From Candidatus Heimdallarchaeum endolithica (lineage in GTDB: Archaea > Asgardarchaeota > Heimdallarchaeia > Heimdallarchaeales > Heimdallarchaeaceae), in contig CP084167.1 of the NCBI GenBank assembly GCA_021513715.1, positions 96,001 through 160,000 on the forward strand: 64,000 nucleotides of DNA, read 5' to 3'. How positions within the stretch are numbered: position 1 is the first letter of the stretch; each line of letters opens with the position of its first letter. Below, one piece after another: positions 29,978 to 30,048 of this stretch. The translations under genes and the position numbers were made by a program. The notes below the pieces were generated by a model. It was given only the letters and a program-made list of their open reading frames with translations, was not told the DNA's origin and searched no databases.

Positions 29978-30048
29978 GGAGAGTGTAGTGTAAACCCATA
30001 TCTGCAAAAAACATTTACACTATACTCACACTCTCCTCTTTTTGCAGA
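29978..30048 (+). ncRNA. Candidate small structured RNA (long hairpin/pseudoknot)
   Basis: GGAGAGTGT (29978-86) pairs with ACACTCTCC (30028-36), and AGTGTAAA (29987-94) with TTTACACT (30014-21). Loop TCTGCAAAAA (30001-10) is complementary to TTTTTGCAGA (30039-48). TATA-like TTTAATAT at 29950-57 and a T-tract at 30039-43. Confidence 0.55.

Follow-up and report, generated by a model that had tools for sequence, protein, structure and literature searches.

The genome of the Asgard archaeon Candidatus Heimdallarchaeum endolithica carries a short intergenic hairpin that is predicted to encode a trans-acting antisense small RNA, sRNA A, which would block translation of TF1, a gene for a TFB-like factor located 5.6 kb away. 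This reading is given roughly two chances in three, with both the strand of the RNA and the sign of its effect inferred. The loop of the hairpin offers an accessible seed that is, by computation, complementary to the translation-initiation region of the distant TF1 mRNA. Seed and target are conserved and change together, over few independent events and with one mismatch. sRNA A probably belongs to a hitherto undescribed family of regulatory base-pairing RNAs from the archaeal lineage nearest to eukaryotes.

Two circular Heimdallarchaeum genomes, of 3.32 and 3.08 Mb, have been described (PMC8813620). The window analysed here is a stretch of 64,000 nt, bases 96,001–160,000 of the closed 3,326,783-base genome of Ca. 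H. endolithica (31% GC); the sister genome compared with it is that of Ca. Heimdallarchaeum aukensis (3,081,793 bases). The hairpin (29978–30036) sits between two minus-strand genes, in a cluster that encodes RadA, RadB, two helicases, a candidate HerA/DUF87-like ATPase and a 2,121-aa Ig-domain protein (a large surface protein). The end of the TF2 gene lies 90 nt from the hairpin. A TnpB-like gene is present in pieces at 37622–39083 of the window.

Table 1. Features of the sRNA A and TF1 loci (window coordinates unless marked as genome coordinates).
Feature	Position	Strand	Basis
TF1, 440 aa, modelled double cyclin fold closest to the TFB/TFIIB core	23083–24405	−	
Target block B, start codon and first six codons	24387–24404	−	
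Upstream ORF, four codons, stop directly ahead of the main ATG	24406–24420	−	predicted from sequence
Target box A, with upstream AUG (24420) and three bases of the GGTGA Shine–Dalgarno (24417–24413)	24415–24428	−	
TF1 proximal promoter, TATA-like box (24456–49) and TGCAA-N5-CTGCAA repeat (24485–70)	24449–24485	−	putative
TATA-like box, A-rich BRE-like stretch ahead; predicted start ~29978–79	29949–29956	+	putative promoter
T8 tract, likely end of the TF2 mRNA, which would overlap sRNA A antisense	29959–29966	−	putative function
Predicted sRNA A, hairpin with pyrimidine/T5 tail	29978–30043	+	folding, identity in H. aukensis, syntenic homologue in MAG ACTSQE
Seed (block A) in the loop, complementary to the TF1 leader box	29994–30007	+	target ranking
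Unpaired linker between the blocks	30008–30011	+	variant comparison
Block B, right arm including 6-nt bulge (30022–27), complementary to TF1 start and first codons	30012–30028	+	
TF2, 245 aa, paralogue of TF1	30127–30864	−	26% identity, E 1e-15
Sibling RNA B, seed between two hairpins	genome 91577–91629	−	kept in H. aukensis

The hairpin and its putative transcription signals

The stem that a sequence-only reading of this DNA had described is real: it comprises 9 bp and 8 bp, with the 6-nt bulge and a 19-nt loop, and has an alternative register of 14 bp with one G·U pair. The fold has z = −2.9 on either strand, and the loop bases 29995–30013 are computed to be 89–100% unpaired. The TATA-like box and T tract of that reading are also present, the box at 29949–56 and the tract as T5 at 30039–43; TTTAAT-type hexamers peak ∼30 nt ahead of starts in this genome. 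The Rfam 15 covariance models give no match to the hairpin even at E 10, with the gathering threshold not reached, and none of the sibling RNAs described below matches Rfam.

Folding makes no strand choice at this locus, since the fold energies are −22.8 for the sense (minus) strand and −19.2 for the antisense strand, the sense strand being slightly better. The minus strand also has a TATA-like box, at 30080–73 within a 93% conserved stretch. Plus-strand transcription of sRNA A is read from homologues: the assignment rests on a loop nearly identical to that of hairpin C69 of another genus (G003), which carries a promoter-like motif and a terminator hairpin with a T tract on the antisense side.

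Two other roles for the locus fall away. In H. aukensis the hairpin and the downstream gene are split apart by an insertion sequence with a 14–15 bp target duplication, yet the hairpin itself is intact, which rules out a cis-leader of the downstream 133-aa gene. A 43-codon minus-strand ORF over the hairpin is set aside because conservation acts at the level of single bases and the insertion sequence interrupts the frame. An IS481-like element is found just upstream of the sRNA promoter (position of window 29927–29940) in both H. aukensis and assembly L090.

Predicted pairing with the TF1 leader

The 14-mer at 29994–30007 recurs exactly at 24415–24428, both on the plus strand, and these are its only two copies in the 3.33-Mb genome. 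The complementary target lies 10–23 nt upstream of the TF1 ATG (24405, minus strand), exactly as first proposed. The predicted start of the TF1 mRNA is at ∼24426, so 12 of the 14 target bases would fall within that transcript; GGTGA peaks 9–13 nt ahead of starts in this genome. When the loop is set against all 2540 start regions, TF1 ranks first (−24.0, the next at −18.1), and the right arm separately ranks it first again (−24.4, the next at −22.3); TF1 comes first neither for the other arm nor for any of the three opposite-strand segments. The second block of complementarity, at the start codon, proves better than the sequence-only reading had claimed: 30012–30028 pairs with 24387–24404 over 17 bp with one bulge and one G·U pair (−20.4 kcal/mol), and the corresponding helix in H. 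aukensis has 18 bp.

Genome-wide, 9 of 59 intergenic hairpins have a loop that matches some start region over 14 nt, mostly in A/T low-complexity sequence, so the 14-mer by itself is weak evidence and no proof. The energy makes a stronger case against chance than the match does: among 2000 shuffled loops only one reached −20 against the genes of the window, where the real loop reaches −23.5. Blocks A and B occur in swapped order in the RNA and in the target, so that pairing both at once would need a pseudoknot-like or three-way arrangement. The left arm of the stem is a near copy of the block B stretch of the TF1 mRNA, and the mRNA could therefore displace it.

The target was originally called TFB-like, and structure prediction bears this out. 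The TF1 model (pLDDT 75, pTM 0.47) contains two cyclin folds, and its top Foldseek matches are TFIIB/TFB (E 0.02, prob 1.0). Alignments to TFB/TFIIB give Z 8.6–9.7 and rmsd 5.7–6.5 over 183–211 residues; these proteins have the lowest two-domain rmsd, with cyclins and Rb tying by Z. The sequence has no CxxC pair, hence no zinc ribbon; it falls into no Pfam family, TFIIB included, and sequence searches of the Atlas and the PDB return nothing. The model thus supports a fold like the TFB/TFIIB core without the zinc ribbon. Like the archaeal TFB/TFIIB core (PDB 1AIS, 1D3U, 5IY6), TF1 is predicted to have two cyclin folds; unlike it, TF1 has a 130-residue C-terminal extension and no ribbon, at ∼10–15% identity. 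A canonical TFB is encoded elsewhere in the genome, and the genomes searched show the family of TF1 and TF2 nowhere outside this archaeal family. A third ribbon-less TFB-like paralogue of 255 aa is encoded at genome 1658515–1659282, with a leader that lacks the box. In one genus (G005) the TF1 orthologue is a fused tandem duplicate (562–583 aa) whose leader lacks the upstream AUG of the box.

Conservation and a family of seed RNAs

Between the two Heimdallarchaeum species the hairpin is 98.3% identical, the 51 bases ahead of it (29927–29977) are 100% identical and the TF1 leader is 98.8% identical. Other short intergenic regions are 74–94% identical, third codon positions of neighbouring genes 62–76%, and the stretch beside the TF2 stop 39%. 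Recent gene transfer is rejected as a source of this conservation, with third positions 68–73% identical in both flanking genes. In further strains the sole variable base of the hairpin is 30010 (A, C or T in three variants), between the blocks; changes in the leader fall upstream of the box, the paired blocks are unchanged at both loci, and no stem pair of sRNA A varies among close variants. In one assembly resembling H. aukensis, TF1 lacks 69 bases in frame and with them most of target block B, either a real variant or a misassembly. A BLAST-type DNA search finds the hairpin in the sister species only, a covariance model built from three near-identical variants finds nothing convincing outside the genus, and a GTDB-wide pattern returns H. 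aukensis and unrelated chance matches only.

A more distant homologue comes from MAG ACTSQE, found by profile search, in which both contigs are assigned to one MAG and have the same locus-tag prefix. Its TF1 is 44% identical. Its hairpin lies between the orthologues of TF2 and of the 133-aa gene, with the relative strand unchanged, the position at the TF2 gene end the same and the basal stem ends kept; block B is not kept in this hairpin. Set against the TF1 leader of this MAG, the loop is complementary over 13 nt apart from one A·C mismatch, and two changes are matched on both sides. The C-to-T change common to seed and target counts as a single event. When the intergenic region was shuffled, 1 of 300 versions matched equally well. 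The loop fits the leader of another genus better than its own (−23.9 vs −17.6). In assembly L089, TF2 is joined to unrelated genes with no hairpin, probably on a chimeric low-coverage contig.

The sequence-only reading had expected loop and target to be kept together in relatives, and they are, at 98–99% for both sites in H. aukensis and with the two matching changes in MAG ACTSQE. Its trans-acting switch RNA survives in part. The antisense aim at the TF1 leader is upheld by the ranking, the conservation, the matching changes and the seed RNAs described below. The switch itself, a pseudoknot of 30001–10 with 30039–48 that would mask part of the seed in read-through transcripts, forms here (−12.4) but is rejected as a conserved device, as it is largely lost in H. 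aukensis (−4.6) and has no counterpart in MAG ACTSQE. Attachment sites of a 5.6-kb element, as a source of the repeated sequence, are also rejected: seed and box persist elsewhere while gene order changes.

The seed is not confined to this hairpin. In genus G003, two intergenic hairpins combine unrelated stems with a loop nearly identical to that of sRNA A; an aldehyde-dehydrogenase/LuxC-like gene begins 280 nt downstream of one of them, with its start codon inside the complementary box. In H. endolithica itself, RNA B lies 4.4 kb left of the window, back-to-back with an aldehyde-dehydrogenase/LuxC-like gene, and its target ranking also places TF1 first. Fifteen other genomes of the family contain one related RNA each, with BRE and TATA elements, a 5′ hairpin, an invariant single-stranded seed, a variable 3′ hairpin and a pyrimidine tract. 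This RNA folds better on the antisense strand in 15/15 genomes, and controls with the reversed pattern gave no matches; for the homologous and sibling RNAs the antisense strand is clearly favoured as the functional one. Counts over related genomes reflect ∼5 lineages, because these genomes are not independent. The RNA was found with a shorter seed applied per genome; earlier seed patterns in the larger genera returned gene starts or coding matches only, and a composite pattern, derived from its own four matches, shows only that no further ones exist.

The sequence complementary to the seed is an AGAYATGG-type box. Of the 22 TF1 leaders examined, 20 contain it, and in most relatives it is also found where the aldehyde-dehydrogenase-like gene starts. 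A generic start-codon context is rejected, with AGAYATGG at 2 of 2540 starts in this genome. The flanks of the seed mostly track the targets of each lineage: Heimdallarchaeum seeds reach −24 to −25 on their own leader and −15 or weaker on all others. Several relatives' seeds bind the targets of other lineages as well as their own. Within the window, the start of a PadR/methyltransferase-like gene (32798–32807) has a shorter version of the box and is a possible second target. In two genera the B-type RNA precedes the 16S rRNA gene by 400–500 bases on the shared strand, and a portion of its linker is similar to a 16S 5′ stretch.

Mechanism, rival readings and known systems

In the proposed mechanism the plus strand would yield a constitutive RNA of ∼65 nt, whose open loop would pair with the 5′ end of the TF1 mRNA (14 bp, a computed ∼−24 kcal/mol) and cover the upstream AUG and part of the Shine–Dalgarno. 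In Heimdallarchaeum the main start codon could be captured as well, by the 6-nt bulge; the TF1 mRNA may then displace the left arm that mimics it, producing a second helix of 17–18 bp. Translation of TF1 and of the genes that follow it would be blocked as a result, and the mRNA would perhaps decay. sRNA A would be one of several siblings with a common seed complementary to the AGAYATGG box, which in relatives marks the start codon of the aldehyde-dehydrogenase/LuxC-like gene and of others as well. The antisense reading has points against it: block B is confined to one genus and stands in reversed order to block A.

The best-surviving rival, though improbable, makes the minus strand the functional one, as the 3′ UTR of TF2 or as a short transcript from ∼30050 to the T8 tract. 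Such an RNA would present a copy of the TF1 leader in its loop and act as a sponge for RNA B, with positive feedback on TF1. The minus-strand T8 tract, kept in three lineages (the third being MAG ACTSQE), and the TATA-like box on that strand keep this reading alive. The slightly better fold of the sense strand, the existence of an RNA B complementary to the loop over 12 nt, and a MAG ACTSQE mismatch that would be harmless to a sponge also speak for it. Against it, the hairpin matches TF1 over 14 nt and RNA B over 12, block B has no partner in RNA B, and the look-alike C69 hairpin has its transcription signals on the antisense side.

It is something of a long shot that the plus-strand RNA instead activates TF1, by hiding an upstream AUG at which ribosomes are drawn off into a short ORF, or by protecting the 5′ end. 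An upstream AUG lies in the box of 20/22 TF1 leaders, in no case with an open frame that continues into the gene, and in most relatives the seed would leave the Shine–Dalgarno and the main AUG free. Here, however, block A covers three Shine–Dalgarno bases and block B the main AUG, and in relatives it is the true start of the aldehyde-dehydrogenase-like gene that the seed covers, so the AUG of the box may be needed just for pairing. A DNA operator, bound by a protein at both loci, is very unlikely. It would account for the six of 14 bases that are identical to a half-site of the TGCAA repeat conserved in the promoter and for one position that varies between A and G without strict matching between the loci, but the motif is always single-stranded within unrelated RNA stems, with a promoter upstream and a terminator-like hairpin downstream, and its polarity is fixed opposite to that of the box at gene starts. 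Least likely of all is a chance match, or a relic of local duplication beside an ordinary terminator hairpin, a reading that can point to the 9/59 hairpins, to the conservation of other short intergenic regions and to a TF1 start composed of short tandem hexamers, but is opposed by two independent first ranks, by the swapped block order and by 19 further seed RNAs, and largely refuted by MAG ACTSQE (persistence with matching changes at 44% protein identity), the G003 hairpins and the 15-genome RNAs.

Under the antisense reading, recognition by sRNA A would resemble that of the plasmid kissing-loop antisense RNAs (CopA, RNAI) and of molecular beacons, in which the loop is recognised first and the stem is then invaded. 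CopA and RNAI are cis-encoded and fully complementary to their targets, whereas sRNA A is encoded 5.6 kb away and has two short blocks in swapped order.

Closer in plan is sRNA162 of Methanosarcina mazei, a single-stranded region of which pairs with the ribosome-binding site of a transcription-factor mRNA (PMC3510493). Like it, sRNA A is archaeal and would be trans-acting, aimed at the mRNA of a transcription-factor-like protein and antisense to a neighbouring transcript, and the hairpin–linker–hairpin plan of sRNA162 is common to the B-type siblings. sRNA A differs in being shorter, in having its seed in the terminal loop, a second block at the start codon and siblings with the same seed, and in being aimed at the 5′-terminal gene of an operon, which encodes a TFB-like fold; no sequence relation is apparent. 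With RocR/RocRp of Legionella (PMC7973641, PMC6744872) it has in common a short sRNA with one common sequence for several 5′ leaders, and a second copy with another expression pattern. The neighbourhood here, with RadA, RadB, helicases, the HerA/DUF87-like ATPase and the Ig-domain protein, recalls the setting of RocR, although a role in DNA uptake is putative. RocR/RocRp are bacterial, depend on the FinO-domain chaperone RocC and have no homology to sRNA A. By analogy, sRNA A would work like sRNA162 and RocR and is a member of neither group.

A search of the open-access literature found no paper that assigns a named target to a regulatory base-pairing RNA from an Asgard archaeon. The present candidate spans the family, and its short seed, its several predicted targets and its naturally occurring matched changes come from the lineage nearest to eukaryotes. 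One can now test whether RNA control of multiple targets through a seed existed in that lineage, and whether some protein assists it and which; the candidate also points to how a ribbon-less TFB-like factor and a cluster for recombination and surface proteins may stay off. A wider scenario is tentative and, taken whole, unlikely: sibling RNAs with one start-codon-centred seed on differing scaffolds and promoters would gate an alternative TFB-like factor that turns on a programme of DNA uptake and recombination, with sRNA A as a two-site molecular beacon that would open upon meeting its target and is possibly buffered by the overlapping TF2 3′ UTR.

The repeat TGCAA-N5-CTGCAA stands ahead of TATA boxes at window 24470–24485 and at genome 82603 and 2034202–2034342, and is a likely activator site; it is kept at TF1 family-wide and occurs in multiple copies upstream of a TnpB-like gene. 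An intergenic hairpin at genome 589277, which may be a plain terminator, has a loop that matches 12 GC-rich bases upstream of the two copies of a 91-aa gene (2244535, 2399688). Outside the window, a candidate second hairpin RNA (genome 82664–82720), with the TGCAA repeat upstream, has a loop with a 13-nt match spanning the start codon of the 564-aa gene beside it (84486–98). In H. aukensis this loop is invariant, and two G·U pairs become Watson–Crick pairs on the antisense strand.
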